A stretch of 32,000 nt of DNA from an archaeon. Lineage in GTDB: Archaea; Iainarchaeota; Iainarchaeia; Iainarchaeales; 1-14-0-10-31-34. Positions 2,283 to 29,027 of this stretch are shown here, piece by piece (the stretch's first letter is position 1; every line of letters begins with the position of its first letter). The stretch spans positions 360,001 through 392,000 of the forward strand of contig JAJRVL010000004.1 in NCBI GenBank assembly GCA_024277355.1, in the 5' to 3' direction. A program made the position numbers and the translations under genes. Below the pieces are notes generated by a model. The model was not told the DNA's origin. It was given only the letters and a program-made list of their open reading frames with translations, and did not search any database.

Positions 2283-2355
2283 TCTATCATAAAACAATAA
2301 ATCAGTTAGGCTTTTATTGATTGCTTTTATATTAGTTTTTTTAGGAAGAGAGAAT

Positions 2356-3537
2356 ATGGCAGAAGAAAATAACACTATGGTAAGGAAAACTCCAATTTTT
2401 GATATTTATGATTATGTAACTAAATTAGAAGAACAAGTTAGATTACTTCAGACAGAAAAAAATTTAATTAAATCAAAAAACAGTCAAATGGAAATTGAAT
2501 TCCAAAAAATCAGAAAAGAATTAGAAGAAATGAGAAAACCGCCTTTAATTGTTGGAACAATCCAAGAAGTAATTAATGACACTGCAATAGTAAAAAATTC
2601 CAATGGATTAGAATTTTTAGTTGAATTTGAAAAAAAACAAGAAGGAATTAAAGCAGGAAGCAAAGTTGCAATGACTCAAAGAAGCCTTAAAGTAGTTAAA
2701 TTACTTCCGGAAACAAAAGATCCAAGAGCAAAAGCAATGGAAATAATAGAAAAACCAGATGAAAGCTTTGAAACAATAGGAGGCTTAAAAAAAGAAATAA
2801 CTGAATTAGAAGAAGCAGTTACATTGCCTTTAACTTCTCCTGAAAAATTTGAAAAATTAGGAATTGAAGCACCAAGCGGAGTATTACTTTTTGGAGAAAC
2901 CGGAACAGGAAAAACATTATTAGCTAAAGCAATAGCCAATAAAACTAATTCAACGTTCATTAAAATTACTGCATCAGAATTAGTCAGAAAATATATCGGC
3001 GAAGGAGCCGAATTAGTAAGAGATGTATTTAAGTTAGCTGAAGAAAAAAAACCTTCAATTATTTTTATTGATGAATTAGATGCAATTGGAACAACAAGAA
3101 CTGATGACACTTCAGGCGGAGACAGAGAAGTCCAAAGAACTTTAATGCAGTTATTATCTGAAATGGATGGATTCAGAAAAAGAAAAAACATTGCAATAAT
3201 TGCAGCAACAAACAGAATTGACGTAATTGATTCAGCTTTATTAAGGCCAGGAAGATTTGACCGAATGGTTGAAGTTCCTCTGCCAGATGTAAATGAAAGA
3301 GAAGAAATTTTTGCAATTCATTCAGCTTTAATGTCTTTACAAAACGTAAATTTAAGAGAATTAGCTGAATTAACTGAAAGTTCATCAGGAGCAGAAATCA
3401 AAGCCATCTGCATGGAAGCAGGAATTTTAGCTTTAAGAGAAGAAACTGATTTTATTTCACAAGAACACTTTATACAGGCAATAGAAAAAGTTATAGGAAA
3501 AGAAGAAGAAGAAAACGAAGACAAAATGTTTAGTTAG
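2356..3537 (+). CDS. pan: proteasome-activating nucleotidase (AAA+ ATPase)
   Basis: Trimmed to ATG 2356, with GGAAGAGAG just upstream. The protein has an N-terminal coiled coil and an OB-like segment (GTIQEVINDTAIVKNSNGLEFLV). It carries one AAA+ module with Walker A GETGTGKT, Walker B IIFIDELD and ATNRIDVIDSALLRPGRFDR. It ends in TAG. Confidence 0.9.
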   Translation: MAEENNTMVRKTPIFDIYDYVTKLEEQVRLLQTEKNLIKSKNSQMEIEFQKIRKELEEMRKPPLIVGTIQEVINDTAIVKNSNGLEFLVEFEKKQEGIKAGSKVAMTQRSLKVVKLLPETKDPRAKAMEIIEKPDESFETIGGLKKEITELEEAVTLPLTSPEKFEKLGIEAPSGVLLFGETGTGKTLLAKAIANKTNSTFIKITASELVRKYIGEGAELVRDVFKLAEEKKPSIIFIDELDAIGTTRTDDTSGGDREVQRTLMQLLSEMDGFRKRKNIAIIAATNRIDVIDSALLRPGRFDRMVEVPLPDVNEREEIFAIHSALMSLQNVNLRELAELTESSSGAEIKAICMEAGILALREETDFISQEHFIQAIEKVIGKEEEENEDKMFS

Positions 3538-3622
3538 CCGGTTCCATTCGGCTGTAACAGTACACAACTTCATTTCATTCAGCTCTGCTGATTATTTTAC
3601 ACACATTCAATATACCCCTCAC

Positions 3623-3679
3623 TGTACATTATCCAATACCTTCAATGCACATTATTTATATAGTTTATTGCACACTTAT
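3623..3679 (+). promoter_or_regulatory. candidate autoregulated promoter/operator of the RHH-RelE module
   Basis: Three copies of TG(Y)ACA(c)TTAT occur at 3623-3632, 3646-3655 and 3669-3679. The last two flank a TATA-like TTTATATA (3655-3662) about 35 nt upstream of the antitoxin ATG (3695). The function is inferred. Confidence 0.3.
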
Positions 3680-3694
3680 CATTTAGGTGGTTTT

Positions 3695-3931
3695 ATGAAT
3701 ATTAATTTAGGAATACCTTATGAAGCAATTGTTAGAAAAACCATAGAAAAAGGTTATGCAGGAAACCAAACTGAAGTAATCAGACAGGCTTTGATTGCTT
3801 ATGAAAGACTAATTGAAGAAGAAGAAAAAGAACTCGTTTCAAAGGCAATTAAAATAGAAATGGAAGAAGTAAAAGCAGGCAATATTAAAACAAAATCTTT
3901 TAATGCCATGAAGAAAAAGTTCAAGTGGTAA
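3695..3931 (+). CDS. type II antitoxin, ribbon-helix-helix (ParD/CopG-like)
   Basis: Trimmed to ATG 3695, which sits behind AGGTGG. The 78-aa protein begins MNINLGIPYEAIVRKTIEKGYAGNQTEVIRQALIAYERL (beta-strand then two helices) and has an acidic tail. Its stop lies 1 nt before the toxin ATG. Confidence 0.65.
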   Translation: MNINLGIPYEAIVRKTIEKGYAGNQTEVIRQALIAYERLIEEEEKELVSKAIKIEMEEVKAGNIKTKSFNAMKKKFKW

Positions 3932-3932
3932 A

Positions 3933-4193
3933 ATGGAAATAAAAATTCTTGAAACCGCTGAAAAAGAACTTGAAAAAATAGCAAATCCATTAAACAAGCG
4001 GTTTGGAAAACATATTAAAAAAATTGCTTTAAAAGAAACAAGCAGACACCTGAAACACGGTTTGCCATACTTAGCTGAAAATGTTACAAAGCAAGCAAGA
4101 ATTATTTATTACATTAAAGAAAAAACCATTTATGTAATGCATTGCTTTAAATCACACAAAGAATATGAAAGATGGTACAAATCATATAAATAA
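3933..4193 (+). CDS. type II toxin, RelE/ParE superfamily
   Basis: 86-aa protein. The C-terminal pattern ...QARIIYYIKEKTIYVMHCFKSHKEYERWY matches the RelE/ParE core (yRiiY...i.i..i.hRkeaY). It is tightly coupled to the upstream RHH gene. Confidence 0.7.
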   Translation: MEIKILETAEKELEKIANPLNKRFGKHIKKIALKETSRHLKHGLPYLAENVTKQARIIYYIKEKTIYVMHCFKSHKEYERWYKSYK

Positions 4194-4739
4194 AAAAAAC
4201 TAATTTAATTTTAAATCTAAATTCTAAATAATTCAAAAAATCTAAATTCCAACTAAAAAAATAAACCTAATTCTAAATAAAAATAATTATTTTAATTCTA
4301 AAGACACTTAATTAATTGCAATCTGAAAGATAATTTCTAAAGATATATAATAAATTATAACCTAATAAAATAAATCGATAAAGACTTCTATCAATTATAA
4401 TATTAAAAAATAACTCTAAAGAATTTTATCAATTATAATAAAAGAATGAATTAGGAGGAAAGAAAGAATTGTCTTTCCTCAATTCAAGAGAGTTGGTATT
4501 TGAATCTGGAAAAAAAAAATCGAGATAGGCTCACTATAACTTCCAAATCCAATTAACGTATTATATTGGAAGGCAAGTTATATTTAAACATAACTAATAG
4601 TTATGTATAAGCTTGTTTGGCTTATATCGTCAAATAACGAAGAAAAACAAATATAAAAACAAGCTTCAAACATATAAAACATGAAAAAGAAAATTAAAAT
4701 ATTTGAAATTTAAATAAATTAATTAATAGGGGAAAAAAT

Positions 4740-5090
4740 ATGAACAAAAATAATTCAAAGTATTCAATTAAGTTTGTTATAATTGTTTTTTTTGTTGGCT
4801 TATTTTTTGGAGTACTAATGGAATTTACTACTTTTTCACGTAATAACTATCCAATCACTATTTATGCAGCAACACAAGAAAAAAAATTTGAATGGAATCA
4901 AACAATTCAATGTAAATGGCTTGATGAACAACCGCAATATTGTTCTGCTCTTGACTGGAACGAATATTTTCCAATTTATTTTTTTGAAGGAGCTTTGGAA
5001 TCAAAAGGTTGTAGTGGATTAAATTTTGCTAGTAACTTGAATAACAAATATGCTGGCCATACGTTTAAAATTTGCTGGGTTGAAAAATAA
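4740..5090 (+). CDS. small N-terminally anchored/secreted Cys-containing protein, unknown function
   Basis: 116-aa ORF behind GGGGAAAAAATATG. It has one N-terminal hydrophobic helix (FVIIVFFVGLFFGVLM) and 4 Cys in the remainder. Confidence 0.5.
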   Translation: MNKNNSKYSIKFVIIVFFVGLFFGVLMEFTTFSRNNYPITIYAATQEKKFEWNQTIQCKWLDEQPQYCSALDWNEYFPIYFFEGALESKGCSGLNFASNLNNKYAGHTFKICWVEK

Positions 5091-5251
5091 AGACTACTTG
5101 AAAATAAAATATAAATAAGAAAAATATTTTTAAAAAAATAATCAAGGCTTAAAACAAGCAATTATTCAACCAAAAAGTTGATTTTTGTTTAACTTAACTA
5201 ATAAAAAGAAATAAAACACTAAATGCTTTATTTATTAAGGGGGGAAATTAA

Positions 5252-5665
5252 TTGACTGGGAAAATAAATAAGTTAATGATAATTATTTTTGCTTTAATTA
5301 TTTTTACTTCAATTAGTTCTGCTCAAGAAATAAATAACCTGAATATAGAATGGCAAACGCAATATAATGCTAAAATAAATTATATTGATGAAAACACTTA
5401 TGAAATAACATGGAACAATAATCCTTCAAATTCATTTATATCTAACGCATTAAGTGCAGCAAATGCTGATTCAATCTGGGTAAGCACAGCTTTAGGTTGT
5501 GAAGCATATTATTACGATGATGGAAGCGGAACAACTTATTGTGGAAAAGTATGTGGCAAACCTGCTACATGGCGCTGTACTGCAACTGGCAAACCATATA
5601 ATCCAATGGATTTGAAAACATTGTATTTGCAATGTGTGATTCTTGTTCATTTAAACAACAAGTAA
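5252..5665 (+). CDS. N-terminal fragment (signal peptide + first ~115 aa) of the interrupted surface protein
   Basis: 137-aa track ORF with a signal peptide (KLMIIIFALIIFTSISSAQE). A strong SD (AAGGGGGG) lies 6 nt upstream of the TTG start. Confidence 0.6.
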   Translation: MTGKINKLMIIIFALIIFTSISSAQEINNLNIEWQTQYNAKINYIDENTYEITWNNNPSNSFISNALSAANADSIWVSTALGCEAYYYDDGSGTTYCGKVCGKPATWRCTATGKPYNPMDLKTLYLQCVILVHLNNK

Positions 5666-6744
5666 TAAACAATTATTACAGCAGATGTAATAACCCAACT
5701 TGTTAGGGGAGTTATACTTATTCAAATTTAGTTCTTCAAAATGAAAGCGGTTATTACGCAGCAGATGACTGCAAATACACAAACAGAAATTCCTGCGGAA
5801 GCAATTCTTATTGTTCAACTGGAAGCTGTGAATGTAATGCAGGATACAGCAACTGCAATGGAAACCAAAATGACGGATGTGAAACAAACTTAAATTCAGA
5901 TAATTATAATTGCGGTTCATGCGGAAATTATTGCGGAGCAGGATATCAATGTGTTAGCGGAAGCTGTGTATTACAAGATCCTTGTGCAGGAGTAACCTGC
6001 AATAATTATTGTTCAGGAGAAACACGTTATTTTAGTGGTTATTGTTCTAGCGGAAGCTGTACAGGATACAATACAGAAAACTGCAATGCATATGACAATT
6101 ATGCCTGCAATGGAAACACAAGAGAATACCGAGATTATTATTGTTCATCTAATGGCTGTAATTATTCTGTTTCAAGTTCAATTAACTGTGATTCATTAGA
6201 CAGTTATGGGAACCTTGAATATTATTGTTCAGGCAATGACAGAAGACAACACAGAATATCATATGATTACAGTTGTTCTGGAGCTGACTGCTCTTTAATT
6301 TCCTCTAATTATGTTGACGACCAGTTAACTGAAACATGCACATATGAATGCTTAGGTTCCACTCCAAACGCTTACTGCAACAATGGTTGTTCAGGACAAC
6401 TTAATATTTCAGTTGAAGACAAACAAGGAAGCCTTTTACAAAACGCGTTAGTTTATGTTAATAATTTACTTCAGGGAACAACTGATTTACAAGGAAAATT
6501 TAGTGTTCCTACTTTAAGTAATCAATGCAATGAAATTTTTTCAATTAAAGTTGTTTCAGCTAAAGGAACTGACTGCGGAACAAAAACAACAATAATAAAC
6601 GAAGAATCAGACAAAGACTATATTTATTTTGCCTGCCAAGATCCCTTACCTCAAATAGAATTAGATACAGTTCCTGGAACCTATACTTATGTTTTAAATG
6701 AAATAATTAATTTTTCTGTTACAGCTTTTGATGAATTATCTGAA

Positions 6745-8613
6745 ATGCTTTCAAATGTTGGAATAGGAGTAGAAGACCCGCAACAAAATATTTCTTTCTG
6801 GAGCATTATTGCTTCTTTTCCATGGAATTATTCAAGTACAGCAGTTTCAACCGGCTTAACTGAATTCCAGTTCTCTGCATTCAAACAAGGCTTTGAACCA
6901 GACTACAAAAAAGTTTCAATTCAAATAGAAGACTTACCTTCAATTAAAGTTCAAGTAAAAGATTCACAAAACAATCCAATAGAAAACGCAAAAGTTTTAC
7001 TTGACAACGAATTAATAGGAACAACAAATTCTAATGGAACAAAAAACATTCCAGATTTATTAAAAGGACTTCATTCAATTGAAACACAATGCGCAAACAA
7101 TAAAACCTGCGGAACAAAAACAGTTGTCGCAGTAAGCGGAGAAAATGAAACAAACTTTACATGCAACTGCCGAGGAGATTTGTTAGTTGGGGCATTCACA
7201 GCACAAAATAATCTTCCTTTAGCAAATGCTTATGTCTTCATTGATGACATCAACAAAGGATTAACAAATCCTTCAGGATACCTTTACATAAAAAACAACC
7301 CATACGGATACCGCAACATTACTATCGGAATGAAAACAAAAACAGATGAAAACTCTGACTATGAAATAAGAAGTTCTTCTGTGTTAATTAATTTCATTGA
7401 AAACAAACAAGAAATAATATTCAACGTAGATGTAAATGAAATAACTGTGTTACAAAATTCTAGTGAAGAACAACAGCAAGAAATTCCAACAATAAACAAA
7501 ATAACAAGCCAAGACTTTAGTGAAATAATAGTTCCAGTATTAATATTATTTGGAATAGTTTATTTAAGTATTCAAGAAGCAAACTTCAAAGAAAACTGTG
7601 TTTACCCCTACAAAGAACACGGCAAATGGCCAGCACAACCATGCCAAGAAGAACTATTAACTTTAGAAACTGAATATACAATAGAAGCAGCAACCATAGG
7701 ACTCCCAATAAACAAATATCTTGGAAAATTCGCTGCATATTTTGGAAAAGGAGCAGTACAAACAATAGAAGCATTACCAAAAGGCTCAAAAGCAATTAAA
7801 TACCTTGGCAGAATTACCAAACTCATTGACAGCAAAAGAAACACATATTTACTAAAACTAAACAGAGGAATTGGCTTCAAAATAATAAACATTGGGGAAG
7901 AACTAATACAAACAGCAAACTCAATAAAAAATCCAATTATAAGACAAAAAATTGAAGAAACTGGAAACTTTATTTTTAAAATGGGGGCAAGAAATATTGG
8001 GAAAGAAGAATTCTTTTTGTATAGCAGTAAAGGAGGTAAAGATGCAGTACTAGGAGATTTAGGAGAAATATTTGGCAGACAATTAAACAATGATCTTGCA
8101 AACCAAGGAGTAGGAAGAGTTGTAAGCCAAGCAGATACTATAGACGGGCACACATTAGGAACTGTGATTTATAGAGATACAGAAGGAGTTATTAGAGAAG
8201 TTACTATCTCATTAAAAAGCAATCTTAGAAGTGTTCAATTTAAATCAGGTTTTGATAACATTGGGGAAATAGACGACCTTTTTTATTTTAGGGACGATTT
8301 AGGAACAGTTTGGCTCGACGCAAAAACAAAAAATAGTGCTTATAATATAGCTGAAGATATAGAAAAACAAGCACTAAGAAATAATCAGATACTAGAATCA
8401 CTTACAGGCAAACCTAGTCAAGGAATAATTACTGTGCCAAAAGGGACTTTATCAGAACCATTTATTTGGGGAAATAAAGGAGTAACAGTCACTTTAAAAG
8501 ACTTGGAACAAAAATATGGAGTAAGGTTTATTGAAATGGAGAATAACTATGTTGAATTAAATGAATGGTCAAACCAAATATTTAGGCTATTAGAAGGTGG
8601 AATATATGGATGA
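6745..8613 (+). CDS. C-terminal part of the interrupted surface protein: CarboxypepD_reg-like domains, one TM helix, nuclease-like C-terminal domain
   Basis: Track ORF beginning at the first ATG of a frame that is open from 5707. It contains beta-sandwich modules (IKVQVKDSQNNPIENAKVLLDNELIGTTNSNGT...; LVGAFTAQNNLPLANAYVFIDDINKGLTNPSGY...). A TM helix IIVPVLILFGIVYLSI (7525-7572) is followed by a ~345-aa domain with GDLGEIFG and GEIDD...LDAKTK. Confidence 0.7.
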   Translation: MLSNVGIGVEDPQQNISFWSIIASFPWNYSSTAVSTGLTEFQFSAFKQGFEPDYKKVSIQIEDLPSIKVQVKDSQNNPIENAKVLLDNELIGTTNSNGTKNIPDLLKGLHSIETQCANNKTCGTKTVVAVSGENETNFTCNCRGDLLVGAFTAQNNLPLANAYVFIDDINKGLTNPSGYLYIKNNPYGYRNITIGMKTKTDENSDYEIRSSSVLINFIENKQEIIFNVDVNEITVLQNSSEEQQQEIPTINKITSQDFSEIIVPVLILFGIVYLSIQEANFKENCVYPYKEHGKWPAQPCQEELLTLETEYTIEAATIGLPINKYLGKFAAYFGKGAVQTIEALPKGSKAIKYLGRITKLIDSKRNTYLLKLNRGIGFKIINIGEELIQTANSIKNPIIRQKIEETGNFIFKMGARNIGKEEFFLYSSKGGKDAVLGDLGEIFGRQLNNDLANQGVGRVVSQADTIDGHTLGTVIYRDTEGVIREVTISLKSNLRSVQFKSGFDNIGEIDDLFYFRDDLGTVWLDAKTKNSAYNIAEDIEKQALRNNQILESLTGKPSQGIITVPKGTLSEPFIWGNKGVTVTLKDLEQKYGVRFIEMENNYVELNEWSNQIFRLLEGGIYG

Positions 8614-9418
8614 CAAAGAAATATCAATTAAAATAGTCCTTAACAAAAAACACGATTCAATTGAAACAGTCTTTGAACTATTTGAAATTTTAGAAGACCT
8701 TAAGATATTCAGGTTATTTCCCATAGAAAAATATAAAACAGCAAAAAATATTCCTCAGAAAATAAAAAAAGAAAAACTAATTAAAGTTGATGAAGGCTGG
8801 CTTAATGAAACAAAAATTTCTGTAAATAATATTTCAATACATTTTGGTTTATGGACAAAAGAGTTTAATAGACAAAATGCAGAAGAAATCTATGAAAAAA
8901 TAAAAAAAGACAAAATACTACAACAGTTTAGCATTCAAATTAATTCCCCTTCAACAGTAATCACAATTAGCAACAATGCAACAAAAATAAACAACAAAGT
9001 CAGTATTGAAAACATAAAATGCATTCTTTCAAAATACACGCCAAACCAAGAAGGATGCGCAATAAAAATTTTAACAGACCAACAGTTATCAATAAACTAC
9101 TTTAAAGCAAAAAATAACATAATAAGTTTGAGATTTTATGAATTCTGCTCTTTTGATAAAAAAGAACGTAAATACAATAAATTAATAAAAAAACTTGTTG
9201 AATTTTCAAATAAAGTTAATCCAATAATAATATATGGAGGAATGTCTCCGCTGGTTACTGAATCTTCTTTAGAATACTACAGGGAAATCTATTACTTTTG
9301 TTTAGAACCGAAAACCCCTCAAAAAATGGGAATTCACACAGTAATAAAAAGTTTTGAGTATTTAACACAAAAAAACGAAAAAATAGAAGAAATAAAAAAA
9401 ATATTAAAAAAAGAATAA
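8606..9418 (+). CDS. hypothetical cytoplasmic protein, translationally coupled to the surface-protein gene (candidate immunity/partner protein)
   Basis: ATG 8606 lies behind GAAGGTGG and overlaps the upstream stop (ATGGATGA). The 270-aa protein has no signal peptide or TM and I recognise no family. The track start, GTG 8597, is also possible. Confidence 0.6.
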   Translation: MDDKEISIKIVLNKKHDSIETVFELFEILEDLKIFRLFPIEKYKTAKNIPQKIKKEKLIKVDEGWLNETKISVNNISIHFGLWTKEFNRQNAEEIYEKIKKDKILQQFSIQINSPSTVITISNNATKINNKVSIENIKCILSKYTPNQEGCAIKILTDQQLSINYFKAKNNIISLRFYEFCSFDKKERKYNKLIKKLVEFSNKVNPIIIYGGMSPLVTESSLEYYREIYYFCLEPKTPQKMGIHTVIKSFEYLTQKNEKIEEIKKILKKE

Positions 9419-9621
9419 CTTATTGAACTGATTAAAAAACACTCTGCCAAATTAATTGAAACAAAATATGGAATATTAGTAATAAAAAATAATTTGAATT
9501 CAACGGATTTAAAAAAAATCTATATGAATCCAAGATATTTTATTAACAAAGAATTACGAAAAAGAGGCATGCAAATAGAAGAAGGCAAAGCAGAAAAATA
9601 CGCAAAAAAGTTGGGATTAAA

Positions 9622-9747
9622 ATGAAAAAAGTATTCCTTCTTCTGATTTTAATTTTTTTAATCTATTCAGTTTCAGCTCAATCAAACTTTGAACCAGACT
9701 ACAAAAAAATTCCAATTGAAATAGTTCCTTATGGCGGAGGAGAATAA
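9622..9747 (+). CDS. 41-aa signal-peptide mini-ORF carrying a copy of an internal segment of the upstream surface protein
   Basis: MKKVFLLLILIFLIYSVSAQSNFEPDYKKIPIEIVPYGGGE. Its ATG overlaps the stop of the preceding open frame (ATGA), and its TAA abuts the next ATG (9748). Bases 9687-9708 are identical to 6891-6912. It is below the track length cut-off. Confidence 0.3.
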   Translation: MKKVFLLLILIFLIYSVSAQSNFEPDYKKIPIEIVPYGGGE

Positions 9748-10365
9748 ATGAAAATTAAAGAAAAAGAATTAATTGAAAGATTAAAAGGATCACTACAACT
9801 AAACTTAGTTCATTATGGAACAGAAATAGAAGATATAGAATTGCATATTAAAGGAACTTTAGAAAATGGATACGATGTTTCATCTGCAATTGAAACAAGA
9901 ACACAAATAAGTATCTTGTTAAACTATCTAAAAGACAAACCAACAGACACAAAAACATTTAACATGAAAGAATACAAAGAATTATTGAAATTCTTAGATA
10001 AAAAATTTGAAAAAATTAAACAAAGAAAAGATTTTCATGAAAAAGCACTGAAAGACTTAAAAAGTTTAGTAAACACTTGGGAACATCATGTGCAATGGCC
10101 TGCGATAGAATCTAATTCATTTGATAACGATTTAGAATTCCGAGACGACTGCGAAGCACTATTAAGAGAATTACAAGAAAAAAAAGAGATAACTGAATTA
10201 AAAAAAAGAATTAAAAACGCAGATGTAACTTTTCAAGGACATTCTTTAGAATTACTCAAAAGATTTCAAGGAGTCTATGAACATGGCGAATGGAATTATT
10301 ACCCTAAAAGTTATTGGTGGAGACACCTAAAAGAATTTGTGGAAAAACAAGAGGAAAAAAAATGA
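9748..10365 (+). CDS. hypothetical all-alpha cytoplasmic protein
   Basis: 205-aa ORF behind GGAGGAG. Its stop overlaps the next start (ATGA at 10362-10365). I recognise no family. Confidence 0.6.
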   Translation: MKIKEKELIERLKGSLQLNLVHYGTEIEDIELHIKGTLENGYDVSSAIETRTQISILLNYLKDKPTDTKTFNMKEYKELLKFLDKKFEKIKQRKDFHEKALKDLKSLVNTWEHHVQWPAIESNSFDNDLEFRDDCEALLRELQEKKEITELKKRIKNADVTFQGHSLELLKRFQGVYEHGEWNYYPKSYWWRHLKEFVEKQEEKK

Positions 10366-11849
10366 CTCAAAAAGTTTTCTGGAAAAGCGCATTAAAAGCC
10401 AGTGCTTTAATGTATTTTATTATTGGAATACTTTCAACAGTTATTTTAATTCTGTTTTTCAGTGACAAACTAGACCAAATAATGAGCATTGCAATGACTG
10501 ACAAAGAATGGCTTGAAGCAACAGCATTTCCAATGACAATAATGTATGTATTCTTGATTTTTGCATGGATTCCGTTTGGCTTTTTATACAAAAAAATCCC
10601 TTTCAAGAAAACAATTGTAAAAGTATTTTTGTTTAACTTAATTCTTGTAGGAATTGAATTATTGATTACAGCTGTATTTGAAATAAAAAATACAGATGTT
10701 CTTAATGAAATATTTTTTGGTTCAGATAACTGCTGTTATTCGTTTATTCCCTTGTTTCTTTTAACAACAATAATGTTTGCATATTTGTTTGATTTCTTTA
10801 AGAAAAGAGAAGAAAAAGAGATTTCAGGAAAAACAAAAAACAAGCTTGCTTCAATTCCAAGAAGATTGCTGGCTTATATAATTGACTTAATAATTCTGTC
10901 AATTATCTTTGGAATAATTTCATTTATTATATCCTCAGTAGCAAACATTATGGTATTTAATTCAAACATTGAACTAAGTTCTGTTGCAGTAATAACTTTA
11001 ATGTCATTTTGTTTTGTTGTTGCCCAAACAATTTACTGGACAGTAGTAGAAGGAAAATTTGGTGCAAGCATTGGGAAAAAAATATTGAAAATAAAAGTAA
11101 TAAAAGAAAATGGAAAAGAAATAAGCTACATTGATGCATTCTTTAGAAACATAACAAAATTTGCCGATAATCTTTTGCCTTTCTTACTAATAGATGCATT
11201 AACAATTTTTACAACAAAAAACAAGCAAAGATTTTTTGATAAAGTTGCAGGAACAATTGTAGTTAGAACTGATTTAAAAAAAGAAAAATTAATGTTAGAT
11301 TCACCTAAAGCAGGTTTTATTCAAAGATTTAGTGCAAGAATTATTGATGGACTAATATTATTGGCATTACTATGTATTTCAGTATTTGTTTCAGCAATAA
11401 TTATTATGGCAGCAGGAAACGATCCAACATTAATTTTTTTGCCTGCTCTTTTTCTTTATTTAATTCACTTGTTTATTTTTGAACCAGTATATTGGATTTA
11501 TTTCACTGCAACAAAAGGCCAGACAATCGGAAAACAATTAAGAAAAATAAAAATTTATACAATAGAAGGAAACACTCCTGTTGGCTGGAAAAAATCAATA
11601 CTAAGGTATTTTGCTTACTGGATTTCCCTTTATTCTTTTTTGCTGGGCCTTTTATGGATTATTTTTGACAAAAACAAACAAAGCTGGCATGACAAATTTG
11701 CAGATACTTTTACAGTAAGAGAAGAGAAAAAGGCTTTTGAAATAAAAAAATACACAATTTATTTGATTGCTATTTCAATAACATTAGGCGTGTTTTTTGG
11801 AGTTCTGTTCAGTTTAATTGGCATTGCAATGCAAGGAGGGATTGCATGA
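10362..11849 (+). CDS. polytopic membrane protein with two RDD-family domains
   Basis: Trimmed to ATG 10362 (MTQKVFWKSALKAS...). It has two units of the RDD pattern: a basic start (IPRRLLAYIIDLII / FIQRFSARIIDGLI), TM helices, then ...FFDKVAGTIVVR and ...SWHDKFADTFTVR. An extra N-terminal multi-TM region is present. Confidence 0.7.
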   Translation: MTQKVFWKSALKASALMYFIIGILSTVILILFFSDKLDQIMSIAMTDKEWLEATAFPMTIMYVFLIFAWIPFGFLYKKIPFKKTIVKVFLFNLILVGIELLITAVFEIKNTDVLNEIFFGSDNCCYSFIPLFLLTTIMFAYLFDFFKKREEKEISGKTKNKLASIPRRLLAYIIDLIILSIIFGIISFIISSVANIMVFNSNIELSSVAVITLMSFCFVVAQTIYWTVVEGKFGASIGKKILKIKVIKENGKEISYIDAFFRNITKFADNLLPFLLIDALTIFTTKNKQRFFDKVAGTIVVRTDLKKEKLMLDSPKAGFIQRFSARIIDGLILLALLCISVFVSAIIIMAAGNDPTLIFLPALFLYLIHLFIFEPVYWIYFTATKGQTIGKQLRKIKIYTIEGNTPVGWKKSILRYFAYWISLYSFLLGLLWIIFDKNKQSWHDKFADTFTVREEKKAFEIKKYTIYLIAISITLGVFFGVLFSLIGIAMQGGIA

Positions 11850-12526
11850 ATATATCTAAAAAGTTTTTAATTTATTTTTTCTTGATTTTGTTTTTAGTTC
11901 AGTTTAGTTATCCTTTAATTTTAACTAAATCTTTTGTTGTTTCTGAACCAATAACTGAAGTTTCACAAAAAATTTCTCCTGAATTAGTTTCTTTAACTGA
12001 AAGTTTTCCTTTAAAAACAACTAAAGTTTTAATTCAAGCAGAAAACGAAAATGCATTAAATGAAATTGCTTTATTAACAGAAAGTTTAGGCGGAACAAAA
12101 GCAGAAAATGTTTTAATTGAAATATTTTTTGACGGAATAAAAATTCATGATGAAAACATTAATGTTAATTCAAATGAAACAAAATCAATTATAGCAGAAA
12201 CAAACCAAAACACTGGAATTCATTTAATTGAAGTTAAAATAAATTCAAGTCAAACAGTTATTGAATCAGATTACACAAACAATAATTTAATTTATGAAGC
12301 ATATTTATGCAGTAAATCAAATATTTTAATTATAAATGACAATGACGCAGAAAATTATGCAACAGACAATCCTGAAAGCATTAATGCATTTGAAGAAGCA
12401 TTAAAAGCAAACCTTTATTGTTTTGAAGTATGGAATGAAAAAACACAAGGAGTTCCAACAATAGAATACTTAACTAAATTTAATTTATTGATTTGGAGTA
12501 TACTGGAAATTACTGGAACACAGTAA
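11846..12526 (+). CDS. secreted protein with CARDB-like domain, 5' fragment of a frameshifted gene
   Basis: The ATG overlaps the upstream stop (ATGA). It has a signal/anchor sequence (FLIYFFLILFLVQFSYP). A CARDB-like beta-sandwich ends ...GIHLIEVKINSSQTVIESDYTNNN. The reading frame continues in another frame from about 12499. Confidence 0.6.
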   Translation: MNISKKFLIYFFLILFLVQFSYPLILTKSFVVSEPITEVSQKISPELVSLTESFPLKTTKVLIQAENENALNEIALLTESLGGTKAENVLIEIFFDGIKIHDENINVNSNETKSIIAETNQNTGIHLIEVKINSSQTVIESDYTNNNLIYEAYLCSKSNILIINDNDAENYATDNPESINAFEEALKANLYCFEVWNEKTQGVPTIEYLTKFNLLIWSILEITGTQ

Positions 12527-13152
12527 TAAACGAAGAAGACATGAATTTACTGCAAGAATACACTAAAGGAATTATATTTGAAGGAACAGACATTGCTTTT
12601 GACCATGCAAATGAATTGTTTTTAGAAGAAAAACTTTATTCAAATTTAGATAAAGATTTAATAATTGACGGACAAGAACCATTAATTCTATCAAACCATG
12701 AATTATTAAATGGAATAACTCAGATTACAATTGATGGAAACATTTCTCCTTACCCTGATTCAGTTACTCCAGTTAATTCAATCAGCATTGCTGACTGGAA
12801 TAATGCTGAATCTGCAATAATTTTAGCTGACTCAAATAAAACAATTTATTTTGCTTTTTCAGTTAATTCAATTAATGAAATTAATTCAAGAAATAAATTA
12901 ATTGCAAATTCAATTGAATTCATTATTCAGTCAACTTCAACACAAGAATGCGGAAACCTTGACAACAAAGACTCAGTTGACATATCTGATTTAATTTATT
13001 TAATTAATTACCTGTTTAAAGGAGGCCCTGAACTTCAATGCATGCCAGTAACCTGTAATGCTTCAAATGACTTAACTCAAAACTGGACAATAGAAGATAT
13101 AAGCAATTACATTGAAAACGCACAGCAAACAAATATACAAATAAAGAATTAA
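12493..13152 (+). CDS. 3' fragment of the same frameshifted secreted protein, dockerin-like C-terminus
   Basis: This frame is open only from 12484. The sequence continues the upstream protein (..NLLIWS | YTGNYWNTVINEEDMNLLQEYTKGIIFEGTDIAF..). The C-terminus has a dockerin/EF-hand-like segment, CGNLDNKDSVDISDLIYLINYLFKGGPELQC. Confidence 0.55.
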   Translation: MEYTGNYWNTVINEEDMNLLQEYTKGIIFEGTDIAFDHANELFLEEKLYSNLDKDLIIDGQEPLILSNHELLNGITQITIDGNISPYPDSVTPVNSISIADWNNAESAIILADSNKTIYFAFSVNSINEINSRNKLIANSIEFIIQSTSTQECGNLDNKDSVDISDLIYLINYLFKGGPELQCMPVTCNASNDLTQNWTIEDISNYIENAQQTNIQIKN

Positions 13153-13204
13153 ACAACAACAATATATTTATATTATAATTCTCCCATTATAGGTTAATAG
13201 TGAT

Positions 13205-13840
13205 ATGATGAGTTTTAGTTTGCTTGTTAGAAAACTTTTGCTTGATAACAAAAGATATATTTCTAAAGAAACACTTAAAGAATACTGTAAAAAACTTGGA
13301 ATTTCTTATATTAATGCAATAAAATATTTAAGCAAATACAAATATATTAAAAGAATTGTCAGAGGTTTTTTTTATGTTCCGTGAATTGAAGAAAGAAAAC
13401 TTAAAACAGGCAGACCAAACCATTTAGAAGCCATTGCAGAAGCAATGAAATATAAGAACGTAAAAAAATGGTATGTTGGACTGGAAACAGCTATAAAATT
13501 AAATACAATAACACATGAATTTTTTACAGTAGATTATGTTGTTTCTGATAAAATATTCAGGGCAAAAGCATTTGAAATATTAGGAAGAAAAGTAAAATTT
13601 GTTAAACTAAATAAAAAATTGTTTGGTTTTGGAATAAAAAAAACTGGAAGAATACCTTTCTCTGATTTAGAAAAAACATTGCTGGATTTGATTCATTTAA
13701 AGGTTCATTCAGGTAAATCAGAAAACGCAATAAAAAACGAGTTAATTGAATGGATTAAAAAAGCAGACAAAAGTAAATTAAAGACATACAGCAAACACTA
13801 CAACAATAAAGTAAAAAAAATTATAGAGGAATTAATTTGA
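13205..13840 (+). pseudogene. abiEi: AbiEi-family type IV antitoxin interrupted by an in-frame TGA (13382-13384)
   Basis: ATG 13205 opens the wHTH part (MMSFSLLVRKLL...LGISYINAIKYLSKYKYIKRIVRGFFYVP), which then hits TGA. The same frame continues IEERKLKTGRPNHLEAIAEAMKYKNVKKWYVGLETAIKLN... to 13840. Joined, the sequence has the AbiEi layout (wHTH ending rGxYy, then the C-terminal domain). Confidence 0.65.
13445..13840 (+). CDS. AbiEi C-terminal domain ORF (track ORF downstream of the TGA)
   Basis: 131-aa track ORF in the same frame as 13205-13381. It contains ...WYVGLETAIKLNTITHE...IPFSDLEKTLLDLIHL, typical of the AbiEi C-terminal region. Its stop overlaps the toxin start (TTGA). Confidence 0.6.
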   Translation: MKYKNVKKWYVGLETAIKLNTITHEFFTVDYVVSDKIFRAKAFEILGRKVKFVKLNKKLFGFGIKKTGRIPFSDLEKTLLDLIHLKVHSGKSENAIKNELIEWIKKADKSKLKTYSKHYNNKVKKIIEELI

Positions 13841-14763
13841 TTTCAAAAGGAATAATTGAATTGCTTTCACAAAAACTAGAAATAAAAAACAATTCATTAA
13901 TAGAAAAAGACCTTTATTTGCAGGGGTTGTTAATTGAATTATCAAAATCAGATTACTTTGCTGAAAATTTTGCTTTTAAAGGAGGAACTTGTTTAACTAA
14001 AGTATATTTTGGTCATTATAGATTTTCTGAAGATTTGGATTTTACTTGGATTAATCAAAAAATATTTGAAAACAAATCAGAAAAACAAATAAGAAAAATG
14101 CTTTCAAAAGAAATAAATAAAATAACAAAATTAATTGAAATTATTGCTGAAAAACTTGAACTTGAATTTAAGGGAATAAAATCAGACAAACATTTTGTTG
14201 AACTTGGAGGAAGCAATAAGTTTACTACATTGAAATTATGGTATAAGTCAACAACAGAAAACAGGAAAACTTTTATTAAAATCCAAATTAATTTTATAGA
14301 AAAACTATTTTATAAACTAAAAAAACAAGAAATAAAAGCTATTGCTGAAAAACACAAAAAAGAACTTGAATTTTTATATCCTAAACACGCTAAAATGGCA
14401 ACACAAAATACTAAATTAAAAGTCTATGACTTAAAGGAAATAGCCGCAGAAAAAGTCAGAGCATTGCTTACCAGAAGAGGATTTAAAGCAAGAGACATTA
14501 TTGACTTGTATTTTCTTTCAAAAAAAGGAATTACAATAAAATCAGTGAAAAAAATAGCCATAAAAAAAACAATGTTTATGTTAAAATACCTTAAATACTG
14601 GGAAAACCTAAAAAATAAAAAATTTGAAGAAGAATTCAAAGCAGGAGAAGAAAAACAACTTATAATAAAAGAAATATCAAAAGACTTCAGCAAATTTGCA
14701 GAAACAAACCTGAAAGAATTAAATAAACTTGCTGAAGAAATAAGAAAAAAACACAAAAAATAA
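13837..14763 (+). CDS. abiEii: AbiEii/AbiGii-family nucleotidyltransferase toxin (DUF1814)
   Basis: 308-aa protein with the N-terminal NTase signature FAFKGGTCLTKVYFGHYRFSEDLDFTW. Later it has EIAAEKVRALLTRRGFKARDIIDLYFL. The TTG start sits behind AGAGGA and overlaps the antitoxin stop. Confidence 0.85.
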   Translation: MISKGIIELLSQKLEIKNNSLIEKDLYLQGLLIELSKSDYFAENFAFKGGTCLTKVYFGHYRFSEDLDFTWINQKIFENKSEKQIRKMLSKEINKITKLIEIIAEKLELEFKGIKSDKHFVELGGSNKFTTLKLWYKSTTENRKTFIKIQINFIEKLFYKLKKQEIKAIAEKHKKELEFLYPKHAKMATQNTKLKVYDLKEIAAEKVRALLTRRGFKARDIIDLYFLSKKGITIKSVKKIAIKKTMFMLKYLKYWENLKNKKFEEEFKAGEEKQLIIKEISKDFSKFAETNLKELNKLAEEIRKKHKK

Positions 14764-14813
14764 TGCAGACTATATACAGAAATACTAAAAAAAATATTTT
14801 TTTAAAACAGAAT

Positions 14814-15647
14814 TCAGAAATAAGCTTCAAATTTTTCTTTTAATTGTTTTGCAATTTCTGGATTTTTTGTTACAGTTAAGGGAATTCCTACTTTTCTTTC
14901 AAAAACTTTAGTAAATAACCCCTCCACATCTAAATCTTCAATTTTTTTTATTTTTTTGAATTCTTTATTTACTTCATCTATAATGTTTTTTGGGTAAAAC
15001 ACCTGAAAAATATAATCTTCATAAACTATAACTTCAGGCATATTAAAATCAGTTATGTTTGTCTTAAAATTTTTTTGATTAAATTTTCTTAAAATTTGAC
15101 CACACCATTTATCTAAAGAAGTATCTCCTTTAATTAAGACATATAATAAAGTATTCTCTGCTAAAGTTTTCATTTTAGAATATCCTTCTTTAGAAAAAAA
15201 CAAAGGAATCCATGAATGAAACCAATAAAAATACAAGGGCTTTTTTTCTTCCGTAGATATTGCTTCTCTTGTACTTAATAAAAATCTGTCAACTGCTGCC
15301 AAATCTTCAAAATAAAAATTTGAAATATCTTTATTTATTACTTCTAATACTGTCAAATTATTATCTTCTTTTGAAAGAAGTTGTTCAGTGAATTTCTTTA
15401 ATGAGTTAATCCAGTTTAAATTTAATTCATATTCTTTTCCTTTTTTTTCTATTATTCCTTTTTCCATTAATTCATTTAATGTTTTATGCACTGCCTGATA
15501 AGAAATATTTAACGCATACTTTCGTTTAGTTCTTGCATGAATCTGCTTTGCACTTAACTTCTGTTCATAAGCAAGCAAAGAAATAATTACATCTTTAGAA
15601 GAAGCTTTTTCTCCATTCAAAACCGGCAAAACTAAATTCAAAGTCAT
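14814..15647 (-). CDS. winged-HTH regulator with C-terminal ~190-aa domain of unknown function (paralog A)
   Basis: N-terminal wHTH: IISLLAYEQKLSAKQIHARTKRKYALNISYQAVHKTLNELMEKGIIEKKGKEYELN. The C-terminal domain shares motifs with the two divergently transcribed neighbours: W..W.P, ..YEDYIFQVFYP.., and ..IPLTVTKNPEIAKQLKE. Confidence 0.65.
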   Translation of the reverse strand: MTLNLVLPVLNGEKASSKDVIISLLAYEQKLSAKQIHARTKRKYALNISYQAVHKTLNELMEKGIIEKKGKEYELNLNWINSLKKFTEQLLSKEDNNLTVLEVINKDISNFYFEDLAAVDRFLLSTREAISTEEKKPLYFYWFHSWIPLFFSKEGYSKMKTLAENTLLYVLIKGDTSLDKWCGQILRKFNQKNFKTNITDFNMPEVIVYEDYIFQVFYPKNIIDEVNKEFKKIKKIEDLDVEGLFTKVFERKVGIPLTVTKNPEIAKQLKEKFEAYF

Positions 15648-15735
15648 TTCTTCAACCCATATAACTCTTATAATTACTAAAAGTTAAATTTAAATTTCCT
15701 TTTTATACATAAGATACTGAGAAGAGTTGTTAAAC

Positions 15736-16563
15736 ATGAAGATTTCAAATACTTCTGAACAAATAATTGAAATTTTAAGTAATGAATGGCCTTTAACTAC
15801 AAAACAAATTCATCACAGACTAAAAAGAAGTTACGGAATAAATATCAGTTATCAAGCAGTTCATAAACATATAAAAGAAATGATAAAAGAAAAAATACTT
15901 TCAAAAAACGGCGCAGAATTATCTATAGCTTATTCTTGGATTAAAAATCTTTCAAATTACGCTAAAAAACTTGAATTATCACTTGAAAAAACAAACTCAA
16001 AAGATGGTTCAACAATGATTGTTTTTGATTCATTAGTTGATTGCGGAAAATTCTTAATAAATGAATTTATGGGGAATGAATCTGGCAAATATGGCAATCC
16101 AAAAAAAAAAGATTGTGTTTGTGTTTGGAATCATGCTTGGCCAATTATTGGCGCATCACAAGAAGAACACAAAAAAATGAAAAAAATGTTTAGTGGAACA
16201 GTTCACTGGAATATTTGTGCGCATAACACTTTTTTAGATAAAGTAACATCAAAATATGTTGCTAAACTAGGAAAAAAAGTTGCTTTAAACAAAAAATTTT
16301 CAATGAATACAGATACTTTTGTTGAAGGAGATTACATACTTCAAGCACACTTCCCAAAAGAACTTAAACAAGACATGAAAAAATTATACACCAAAGTTAA
16401 AAACGAAAAAGACTTTGACATGCAAAAAATGTTTGAATTTGGTTCAAAAAAATACGGAATAAAAATAGCAGTATTTAAAAACAAAGAATTAGCTGACTCT
16501 TTAAGAGAAGAAGCAAAAAAAATTTATGAAGAAAGCCAGAAAGAAAAAAATAAAAGGAAATAA
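15736..16563 (+). CDS. winged-HTH regulator with the same C-terminal unknown domain (paralog B)
   Basis: IIEILSNEWPLTTKQIHHRLKRSYGINISYQAVHKHIKEMIKEKILSK, then ..CVWNHAWP.., ..VEGDYILQAHFP.., ..IKIAVFKNKELADSLRE. I placed the start at ATG 15736; the track uses TTG 15727. Confidence 0.65.
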   Translation: MKISNTSEQIIEILSNEWPLTTKQIHHRLKRSYGINISYQAVHKHIKEMIKEKILSKNGAELSIAYSWIKNLSNYAKKLELSLEKTNSKDGSTMIVFDSLVDCGKFLINEFMGNESGKYGNPKKKDCVCVWNHAWPIIGASQEEHKKMKKMFSGTVHWNICAHNTFLDKVTSKYVAKLGKKVALNKKFSMNTDTFVEGDYILQAHFPKELKQDMKKLYTKVKNEKDFDMQKMFEFGSKKYGIKIAVFKNKELADSLREEAKKIYEESQKEKNKRK

Positions 16564-16565
16564 AA

Positions 16566-17375
16566 ATGACTAAAGAAGAAAATACTAAAAACAAAATTAT
16601 AGAAATTTTAAGTGAAAACTGGCCATTAACAGCAAAACAAATTTATAATAGACTTCAAAGAAATTATGCTATTTCAGTTTCATATCAAGCAGTACATAAA
16701 CAATTAAAGCAAATGATGGAAGAAAAAAATATTTCAAAAACTCAGTCAGAATATATTATAAATGAAGAATGGATAAAAAAAATTCAAAATAATGCTGAGT
16801 TAATAGCAGAAAAAATCAAAAACAAACAAAAAGGAACAAATTTAATTGAAATGAATGAAAGAGAATCCAGAAATTTTGTATTTAAGGGAATATTAGAAAT
16901 TGGCTGGTTTTTGATTGATAAAATAATGAAAGCACCAAATCCTGAAAACAAACCTTGCCTTGCATTATGGAGATTTTGTTATTCATTAGTTGGATTAGAT
17001 GAAAAACATTTAACTGGATTTAAAGAAGTATGCAAAATAAACAAGTGGTACATGAGAGTAGAAGAAGAAAATGAAGCAGATAAAATGTTTGGAATAACAC
17101 TTAAAGAATATGGCATAAAAGAAATTAAATATGGAATAAAAGGTTGTGCAACAAAACTCAGTGATAAAATAATTATTGGAGATTACATAGCAGAAATAAT
17201 TTATCCTAAAGGATTCAGAAAAATATGGGAAATACAAAACAGGCTTCCAAAACAACTTGCAAAATTTAATATAGGAAAACACATACAACTAATGAGATTA
17301 CCCCAACCAAAAATAACAGTTATAATAACAAAAAACAAAGAACTAGCAGAAGAATACAGAAAAATGTATTTTTAG
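16566..17375 (+). CDS. winged-HTH regulator with the same C-terminal unknown domain (paralog C)
   Basis: IIEILSENWPLTAKQIYNRLQRNYAISVSYQAVHKQLKQMMEEKNISK, then ..LALWRFCY.., ..IIGDYIAEIIYP.., ..ITVIITKNKELAEEYRK. It starts 2 nt after the paralog B stop and ends in TAG. Confidence 0.65.
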   Translation: MTKEENTKNKIIEILSENWPLTAKQIYNRLQRNYAISVSYQAVHKQLKQMMEEKNISKTQSEYIINEEWIKKIQNNAELIAEKIKNKQKGTNLIEMNERESRNFVFKGILEIGWFLIDKIMKAPNPENKPCLALWRFCYSLVGLDEKHLTGFKEVCKINKWYMRVEEENEADKMFGITLKEYGIKEIKYGIKGCATKLSDKIIIGDYIAEIIYPKGFRKIWEIQNRLPKQLAKFNIGKHIQLMRLPQPKITVIITKNKELAEEYRKMYF

Positions 17376-28899: not shown

Positions 28900-29027
28900 T
28901 TATTTAAATATTCCGCTAAAAAAACAACAACAAGATTATCTAAAAAAAGCATATATTTTAATAGAAAAACAAACAAATATTAATACAATTAATTAAACAT
29001 AATTTTTTGTTGTTGAGAGGGAATAAA

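Follow-up and report, generated by a model that had tools for sequence, protein, structure and literature searches.

A giant single-pass surface protein of a DPANN archaeon with a rare cytoplasmic tail of possible nuclease fold

Introduction

DPANN archaea depend on physical contact with a host. To our knowledge, it is largely unknown how the giant surface proteins of these cells communicate with the cell interior. We analyzed 32,000 nucleotides of archaeal DNA (contig JAJRVL010000004.1 of assembly GCA_024277355.1, positions 360,001 to 392,000; here called the window, from whose first letter all coordinates are counted). The forward strand of the window carries a gene for a large Cys-rich surface protein, whose end overlaps a gene for a 270-amino-acid (270-aa) protein. 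An earlier reading of the bare sequence, the original prediction, took this pair for a polymorphic toxin/immunity locus with a nuclease-like C-terminal domain. Our analysis leads to a different view of the locus, in which the segment 7525-8613 codes for the end of a giant type I surface protein that crosses the membrane once: its anchor and its cytoplasmic tail.

Anatomy of the surface-protein gene

The body of the protein is encoded in frame 1, which is open from 5707 to a TGA at 8611-8613. In order, the gene specifies a signal peptide, disulfide-rich Cys repeats, CarboxypepD_reg-like beta-sandwiches, one transmembrane (TM) helix and a 346-aa tail. The signal peptide (KLMIIIFALIIFTSISSAQE, hydrophobic residues 5-23) is found at the N-terminus of a 137-aa open reading frame (ORF) in frame 2 (5252-5665), together with the Cys-containing start of the ectodomain. 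This ORF is probably the N-terminal part of the big gene, now detached. Frame 1 reopens at 5599, and a frameshift somewhere within 5599-5665 separates the signal-peptide ORF from the rest; an in-frame TAG stop lies further on in the Cys-rich coding frame (5704-5706). Because of the frameshift and the TAG, the signal peptide is cut off from the remainder of the gene. Recoding of TAG was considered as a rescue of the stop at 5704 and was rejected, since the conserved PAN gene of the window (2317-3537) terminates in TAG.

The open frame that follows the TAG (5707-6744, 346 codons) encodes the Cys-rich repeat part of the ectodomain and contains no ATG, GTG or TTG. It is clearly coding because its Cys-rich product aligns with P0005, a homologous protein described below (residues 186-310 against 789-908, 34% identity, E = 2e-11). 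No in-frame start codon comes before the ATG at 6745, where the gene call P0002 (622 aa) of the public NCBI contig (526,574 bp) begins. The membrane-proximal ectodomain (6745-7515) contains a CarboxypepD_reg-like beta-sandwich at about 6940-7152 (Pfam PF13620, E = 2.4e-9). The secreted, repetitive carrier that had been proposed is therefore present, with its signal peptide, Cys-rich repeats and CarboxypepD_reg domain, even though the signal peptide is detached here. Judged by its sequence, the window copy looks N-terminally broken or mis-assembled, and with its signal peptide detached it may no longer work as a surface protein.

Topology and the cytoplasmic tail

The TM helix (FSEIIVPVLILFGIVYLSI, 7516-7572) reaches a Kyte-Doolittle value of 2.3 in a 19-residue window and is the sole hydrophobic segment in the protein body; P0005 likewise has one. 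It is followed by 346 non-repetitive residues (7573-8610), in agreement with the single helix and the domain of about 345 residues described originally. Because only one TM helix follows the N-terminal signal sequence, the tail has to lie in the cytoplasm. The distribution of cysteine agrees with this topology: the ectodomains are rich in Cys (36 of 606 residues in the window protein and 70 of 1037 in P0005), and the tails are poor (2 of 346 and 2 of 331, respectively). From these sequence features, the protein is a single-pass type I surface protein with its tail on the cytoplasmic side of the producing cell. The original prediction had noticed this orientation and had called it a puzzle for a toxin. 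The orientation stands; the puzzle disappears when the tail is taken as a domain meant to be cytoplasmic.

The tail can be divided into two parts. Subdomain 1 (residues 1-149, 7573-8019) contains the patterns PY..KW and E.hP.GS..I.YhG and had no match in Pfam, NCBIfam or the PDB. Its C9 and C24 (7597-7644) are the only cysteines of the tail and lie just past the TM helix, and P0005 has two that are similarly placed; this pair could be a membrane-proximal metal site or a lipidation site. Subdomain 2 (residues 150-346, 8020-8610) carries the restriction-endonuclease-like signature.

A rare tail family with one known relative

A word-index search of 5.8 billion proteins with the tail found no match. 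We then turned to an exhaustive phmmer scan of 1.84 billion cluster representatives, which gave five non-self matches and among them one true homologue, P0005 (E = 8e-13). The other four (P0004, P0006, P0007 and P0008) were rejected as homologues. They consist of PKD-like or VCBS-like repeats that match only tail residues 183-260 with about 5-15 bits per repeat, and their low E-values are artefacts because the bits are summed over the repeats. A word-index search with a two-sequence profile returned the query's own protein only. The family-profile scan of genome contigs, the scan of viral contigs and the tblastn searches of plasmids and phages gave no match. In the metagenome contigs, only two near-identical contigs (L001 and L002, with 1 mismatch in 3,373 nucleotides) encode P0005, and their near-identity makes an estimate of nonsynonymous to synonymous substitution rates impossible.

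In P0005 (1,383 aa), an N-terminal hydrophobic segment is followed by a long Cys-rich region and CarboxypepD_reg-like repeats, and a single TM helix leads into a tail of 331 aa. Because this protein has the same architecture, we judge the tail domain to be real. BLASTP aligned the window protein with P0005 in one continuous high-scoring segment pair (residues 413-963 against 837-1375, E = 1.8e-42), which crosses the ectodomain, the TM helix and the tail to its end. The membrane-proximal ectodomain is 27.9% identical to P0005 and the two tail subdomains 27.3% (subdomain 1) and 24.5% (subdomain 2), and there is no breakpoint at the membrane. P0005 thus keeps the same tail with the same N-terminal part, and the C-terminal swapping that is expected from a polymorphic toxin was not seen in this one available comparison. 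As far as sequence comparison goes, the tail is a genuine and extremely rare domain family with two known members, and it is an integral, vertically inherited part of its protein family rather than a swappable cassette.

The nuclease-like signature of the tail

The original prediction rested its nuclease on two strings in the tail, GDLGEIFG (8053-8076) and GEIDDLFYFRDDLGTVWLDAKTK (8263-8331), and both are placed exactly as claimed. GDLGEIFG is the candidate motif I. Its E165 lies on a predicted helix and is invariant, with GALAEIWL in P0005. Candidate motif II is IGEIDD (8260-8277; IGEFEG in P0005), in which either D234 or E232 may be the acidic residue. Candidate motif III, of the (D/E)xK type, is D249-A-K251 (8317-8325) at the end of the beta-prone TVWLDAK (LALEAK in P0005). 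An invariant Gln, Q266 (8368-8370), is on the following helix, 15 residues past K251.

In two pairwise alignments with P0005 (A1 and A2), the conserved elements of the tail include G-x-L-x-E-I with E165, I-G-E-x-[DE], [DE]-A-K, S-A and Q266. D234 and D249 are each Glu in P0005, and E232 and K251 are kept. In the background of the alignment, an acidic residue stays acidic in 43% of cases and a lysine stays lysine in 34%. Measured on this background, the probability that three acidic residues and the lysine are all conserved is about 0.03. An E, D, ExK, Q signature has been listed for several Tox-REase families, the restriction-endonuclease (REase) toxins of polymorphic systems (PMC3482391). By this analogy the pattern of the tail, which fits that signature, is a lead and not a test.

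We further compared the tail with nuclease profiles. An Hjc profile was built from the PDB sequences 1GEF, 2WCW, 1OB8 and 4TKD, and a second profile from YraN and 3FOV. The best local paths of hhalign, with probabilities below 1%, aligned IGEIDD...LDAKTK of the tail with the catalytic D...ExK strings, placing IGEIDD on CGEIDL of YraN and D-A-K on VEVK of YraN and IEVK of Hjc. In structure prediction, both low-confidence models showed E165 on a long helix, followed by strands, an unmodelled stretch, a helix with Q266 and the strand GIITVP. The unmodelled stretch (DDLFYF-RDDLG-TVWLDAK) looks like a hairpin on direct reading. The order of predicted elements is compatible with an alpha-beta-beta-beta-alpha-beta core with an inserted hairpin. 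We suggest that a divergent PD-(D/E)xK module may make up the second half of the tail, with E165, D234, D249-x-K251 and Q266 as its signature residues. The chance that this half adopts a restriction-endonuclease fold lies, in our estimate, at or a little short of even.

A number of observations weigh against a nuclease. Searches of Pfam, NCBIfam, PADLOC and PHROGs with the two tails gave no credible family, with E-values allowed up to 1-10 depending on the search. The phmmer and profile searches of the PDB returned no nuclease; their top matches were a triosephosphate isomerase and a lectin with E of at least 0.17. The hhalign probability was 0.05% against Hjc and 0.7% against YraN/3FOV (E = 0.077). 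Two single-sequence AlphaFold2 runs gave pLDDT (predicted local distance difference test) values of 35.3 and 39.5. Because of these values, the models and the Foldseek search made with them carry no weight, and the Foldseek output was noise. The signature itself is not rare in a proteome this rich in K, E and D. When the tail is shuffled, the strict form G[DE]x[DE]-x8-28-[DE]xK arises 10% of the time; a looser structural version arises in 36% of the shuffles and in 9 of 31 window proteins. The "PD" aspartate is Glu in P0005, which is less usual, and about 45 residues between the E-helix and motif II make a long insert for a minimal REase core. The tail family has two members only, which makes the conservation statistics thin, and the window gene is disrupted by the frameshift and the TAG. 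What the ectodomain does, and whether the tail is linked to the 270-aa ORF at all, is a matter of conjecture. The predicted PD-(D/E)xK signature therefore fared unevenly: it is kept in the sole homologue, but it has no profile or PDB match. The nuclease fold is not confirmed, and in the sequence comparisons made here the tail did not join any of the named nuclease families.

Several of these observations suit a tail that is no enzyme. It may be a lineage-specific cytoplasmic scaffold or anchor of the surface adhesin, for example one that docks to intracellular partners. The E, D and DxK residues would then be chance occurrences in the beta-hairpin of an acidic, lysine-rich protein, and the 270-aa ORF would be the next gene of the operon. 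The frequency of the motif in the shuffles, the failure of the profile, PDB and hhalign searches, and the Glu at motif II of P0005 all fit, as does the fact that the same hairpin draws the spurious PKD-like and VCBS-like beta-repeat matches. On the other hand, four signature residues and the Gln are in register at about 25% identity, the residues fall on the predicted secondary-structure elements that would be expected of a REase fold, and hhalign's best local paths run through the catalytic strings of YraN and Hjc. We regard the scaffold, and with it the chance origin of the motif, as quite possible. A non-enzymatic tail is nearly as likely as the nuclease.

The downstream gene and the fragments behind it

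The 270-aa ORF (8606-9418) encodes a basic protein (47 Lys and Arg against 35 Asp and Glu) with no hydrophobic segment. It starts with the ATG at 8606 and shares 8 nucleotides, ATGGATGA (8606-8613), with the end of the big gene, stop codon included. A Shine-Dalgarno sequence, GAAGGTGG, is at 8593-8600, with AGGTGG 6 nucleotides upstream of the start. Both the overlap and the Shine-Dalgarno sequence had been predicted and were verified, and the protein, which was said to have no signal peptide and no recognized family, indeed had no library match. A word-index search with it found only itself, and its public NCBI record, also on a contig of 526,574 bp, is a singleton cluster. Looking up contigs by its exact sequence gave no record.

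In contig L001, the gene of P0005 is followed after a gap of 1 nucleotide by an ORF for a 180-aa cytoplasmic singleton. The 180-aa and 270-aa proteins are unrelated (best E = 3.1), and both are basic. Neither of the two downstream ORFs matched a credible family in Pfam, NCBIfam, PADLOC or PHROGs, and no Imm family was found. Unrelated downstream ORFs are compatible with fast-evolving immunity genes and also with unrelated neighbors, the latter in keeping with a non-enzymatic tail. The L001 genes at 2475-5203 (the homologue, the 180-aa ORF and a secreted subtilisin-like S8 protease, PF00082, E = 8e-59) are packed on one strand, and the protease gene overlaps the gene before it.

Tight coupling is a general feature of this DNA. 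In the window, 8 of 23 same-strand neighbor pairs overlap or lie at most 5 nucleotides apart, most internal genes are preceded by Shine-Dalgarno-like AGGAGG or AGGTG boxes, and 5252-13152 looks like one packed same-strand array. Because so many same-strand pairs are equally tight, the overlap of the big gene with the 270-aa ORF is not specific evidence for a functional pair, and it would also suit a non-enzymatic tail with an ordinary operon neighbor.

The gene fragments that had been noticed downstream are real. After the TAA of the 270-aa ORF (at 9416), its frame stays open for 68 sense codons (9419-9622) up to a TGA at 9623-9625; the chance of 9419-9622 staying open is about 0.0012. The segment 9419-9625 is either a C-terminus cut off by a nonsense mutation or a separate small gene starting at the TTG at 9494, and its product had no Pfam match. 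It is followed by a 41-aa ORF (9622-9747) with a signal peptide and FEPDYKKIPIEI. Within it, 9687-9724 is a 38-nucleotide, 92%-identical copy of 6891-6928 of the big gene (repeat family D7). The copied segment belongs to the ectodomain, about 210 codons upstream of the TM helix, and not to the junction of carrier and tail. Judged by its sequence, the 41-aa ORF is what recombination or decay has left of a paralogous surface-protein gene. Neither fragment copies the C-terminal domain.

These lesions led us to consider that the locus is a decaying remnant with no current function here, whatever its ancestor did. The frameshift near 5600-5665 and the in-frame TAG at 5704, the 346 codons (5707-6744) that have no start codon, the open frame past the TAA at 9416 and the 41-aa signal-peptide fragment are what decay would leave behind, and a secreted-protein gene further downstream (11846-13152) is also split by a frameshift. 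However, the lesions could be assembly or sequencing errors. Apart from them, 5707-8613 and the 270-aa ORF are intact, and more than 1,200 intact codons in a genome of 28% GC (guanine plus cytosine) argue for recent or continuing selection. Moreover, translation from the ATG at 6745 would give a 622-aa product whose TM helix could still insert it into the membrane. We hold decay to be rather unlikely as the explanation of the locus.

The surrounding DNA

The GC content of the window is about 22-36% in 1-kb steps, which is low-GC DNA. The housekeeping genes in the window are archaeal (PAN ATPase, ribosomal protein L44e, KaiC and polyprenyl synthetase), and the nearest homologues of PAN, at 79-81% identity, come from metagenome-assembled genomes (MAGs) of Diapherotrites, Iainarchaeum and Micrarchaeota. 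The source organism belongs to the DPANN archaea, has a low GC content and is related to Diapherotrites/Iainarchaeum. The order of the upstream genes for an M50 peptidase, a helix-turn-helix protein and PAN is kept in related Iainarchaeum/Diapherotrites MAGs, and that of the downstream V4R-like and KaiC genes in L006. The part between them (3600-14800, or 3.6-14.8 kb) is not shared: MAGs L003-L006 keep the flanks, M50-HTH-PAN and wHTH/V4R-like/KaiC, and have different genes in between. Since the flanks are syntenic and this part is not, the surface-protein locus sits in a variable accessory island. Besides the surface-protein gene and the 270-aa ORF, the island holds a ParDE-like pair, AbiEii, an RDD membrane protein and the split secreted protein.

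Several of these neighbors could be assigned. Of two small genes 1 nucleotide apart (3668-4193), Pfam weakly matches one to the ParD antitoxin (E = 6e-4) and the other to the ParE toxin (E = 4.5e-3); together they are probably a type II toxin-antitoxin system. An AbiEii nucleotidyltransferase toxin is encoded at 13445-14763 (PF08843, E = 5e-30), and a 131-aa ORF without a Pfam match, presumably its AbiEi-like partner, overlaps it from upstream. Between the fragments and AbiEii, the segment 9748-11849 contains an ORF for a 205-aa helical singleton of no family and, joined to it by an ATGA overlap, a gene for a membrane protein with two RDD domains (PF06271, E = 3e-42). The RDD gene's stop overlaps, again as ATGA, the start of the split secreted protein, which has a weak CARDB match and consists of two overlapping ORFs (11846-12526 and 12493-13152) with an apparent frameshift near 12500.

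Beyond the island are three winged-helix paralogues (14814-15647 on the reverse strand, and 15727-16563 and 16566-17375 on the forward strand), and L003 and L006 have further members of their family, with identities of 23-67%. At 28965-32000, a frame that stays open for at least 1,012 codons runs past the end of the window; its product has a hydrophobic anchor at the N-terminus and is probably another giant surface protein; the stretch at 29-32 kb is poor in ORFs and higher in GC because this long frame lies there. Rfam and tRNA scans of the window gave no matches.

Is the tail an exported toxin?

In the toxin model, which spells out the original prediction, the ectodomain would be the carrier of a REase-fold toxin that is delivered to a neighboring cell, and the 270-aa protein would confer immunity. 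A good part of the locus would suit this model. The N-terminal part is large, secreted and repetitive, and the REase-like signature of the tail is of the type listed for Tox-REase families (PMC3482391). At both loci a small cytoplasmic ORF lies within 0-2 nucleotides, and the two are mutually unrelated, as immunity genes often are. The locus is in a variable island with toxin-antitoxin and Abi genes, and a recombination scar is found downstream.

The topology argues the other way. The TM helix between the carrier and the supposed toxin, together with the upstream signal peptide, puts the domain in the producer's own cytoplasm. Export would require proteolysis at the membrane, membrane fusion or a cytoplasmic bridge, and Pfam detected no HINT, PrsW, pre-toxin or other processing or release domain in the protein. 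The ectodomain and the tail are equally diverged from their only relative. When the tail and the downstream ORFs were searched against the window by tblastn, there was no further copy and no orphan toxin or immunity cassette, and the downstream fragment copies a piece of the ectodomain instead of the tail junction. No Tox-REase or Imm family was matched in Pfam, both putative immunity proteins are basic, and close coupling is not peculiar to this gene pair. We therefore consider an exported polymorphic toxin distinctly improbable, and delivery of the tail by any of the three routes equally so.

The explanation that we tentatively favor is that this type I surface protein carries a new domain on the cytoplasmic side, which may have a nuclease fold and would act inside the producer. 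The module would be tethered under the membrane and would work there. It might cut nucleic acid that enters at a contact site held by the ectodomain, or it might be the intracellular effector of a surface sensor. The 270-aa protein would be a lineage-specific partner or regulator and not a classical immunity protein against an incoming toxin.

A more specific version of this proposal is a membrane-tethered, cytoplasm-facing REase-fold enzyme that is hard-wired to an adhesin in host-dependent DPANN archaea. Such an enzyme could cut nucleic acid at the contact site, either for nucleotide scavenging or as a barrier against foreign DNA. It could also be a suicide effector triggered by contact or damage, with the hypervariable downstream protein as its inhibitor. 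In this full form the proposal is improbable.

If the tail is a true nuclease, the protein would be the first adhesin directly fused to an intracellular DNA-cutting module. If it is not, the locus offers no more than an ordinary surface protein whose tail is rare and lineage-specific. In both cases, the locus should be taken off the list of candidate archaeal polymorphic toxins unless new homologues show C-terminal swapping.

Comparison with known systems

Like YraN (UPF0102) and Hjc, the tail has G-E-I-D-[hydrophobic] followed by hydrophobic-[DE]-x-K, and a Glu-bearing helix precedes them. It differs from these nucleases in having no significant profile similarity, in the insert of about 45 residues, and in the fusion to a subdomain of 150 aa and a membrane anchor. 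The toxins Tox-REase-1 to -10 (Zhang et al. 2012, PMC3482391) share with the window locus a secreted repetitive N-terminus, a C-terminal domain with E/D/(D/E)xK/Q and a small cytoplasmic ORF downstream. They differ from it in several ways: the domain here lies behind a TM helix, neither a release nor a pre-toxin domain was detected with it, the single comparison showed no swapping, and searches for orphan cassettes in the window and for Tox-REase or Imm families in Pfam gave none.

The VARTIG proteins of Thermococcales (Makarova et al. 2021, PMC8416519), which were compared to polymorphic toxin systems by their authors, resemble our protein in being large and of surface type, in their variable, unrelated downstream genes and in their location in a variable island. 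VARTIG proteins have immunoglobulin (Ig) domains, a hypervariable C-terminal Ig domain and evidence of recombination, whereas the protein described here has a cytoplasmic, non-Ig C-terminus in which no hypervariability was seen.

The SPEARE proteins of Nanohaloarchaeota (Hamm et al. 2019) are mostly extracytoplasmic, with a TM segment toward the C-terminus and a conserved intracellular portion (PMC6642349). This portion was first called a restriction enzyme and was later re-read as a VirB4/TraG-like ATPase (PMC10266531). The overturned call is a warning against assigning nucleases from motifs or weak matches, and it counts against our own proposal too. A P-loop or VirB4-like ATPase was considered for the tail and rejected, since direct reading found no Walker A motif (GxxxxGK[ST]) and Pfam gave no match. 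The 270-aa ORF had no ATPase or helicase family by Pfam, unlike the VirB4/TraG ATPase gene that lies downstream of SPEARE (PMC10266531). SPEARE proteins are also longer (3,000-8,500 aa versus about 1,000-1,400 aa here), and no laminin-G, ResIII or VirB4/TraG domain was detected here by Pfam. The resemblance is architectural only, with no sequence relationship shown. It extends to the origin in DPANN archaea, the long adhesin-like extracytoplasmic part, the single C-proximal TM helix, the conserved cytoplasmic C-terminal region and the tightly linked next gene, and in both cases a cytoplasmic "restriction endonuclease" role has been proposed. By this analogy of architecture, the closest precedent for the surface protein and its tail is the group of SPEARE-type giant anchored proteins of DPANN archaea.

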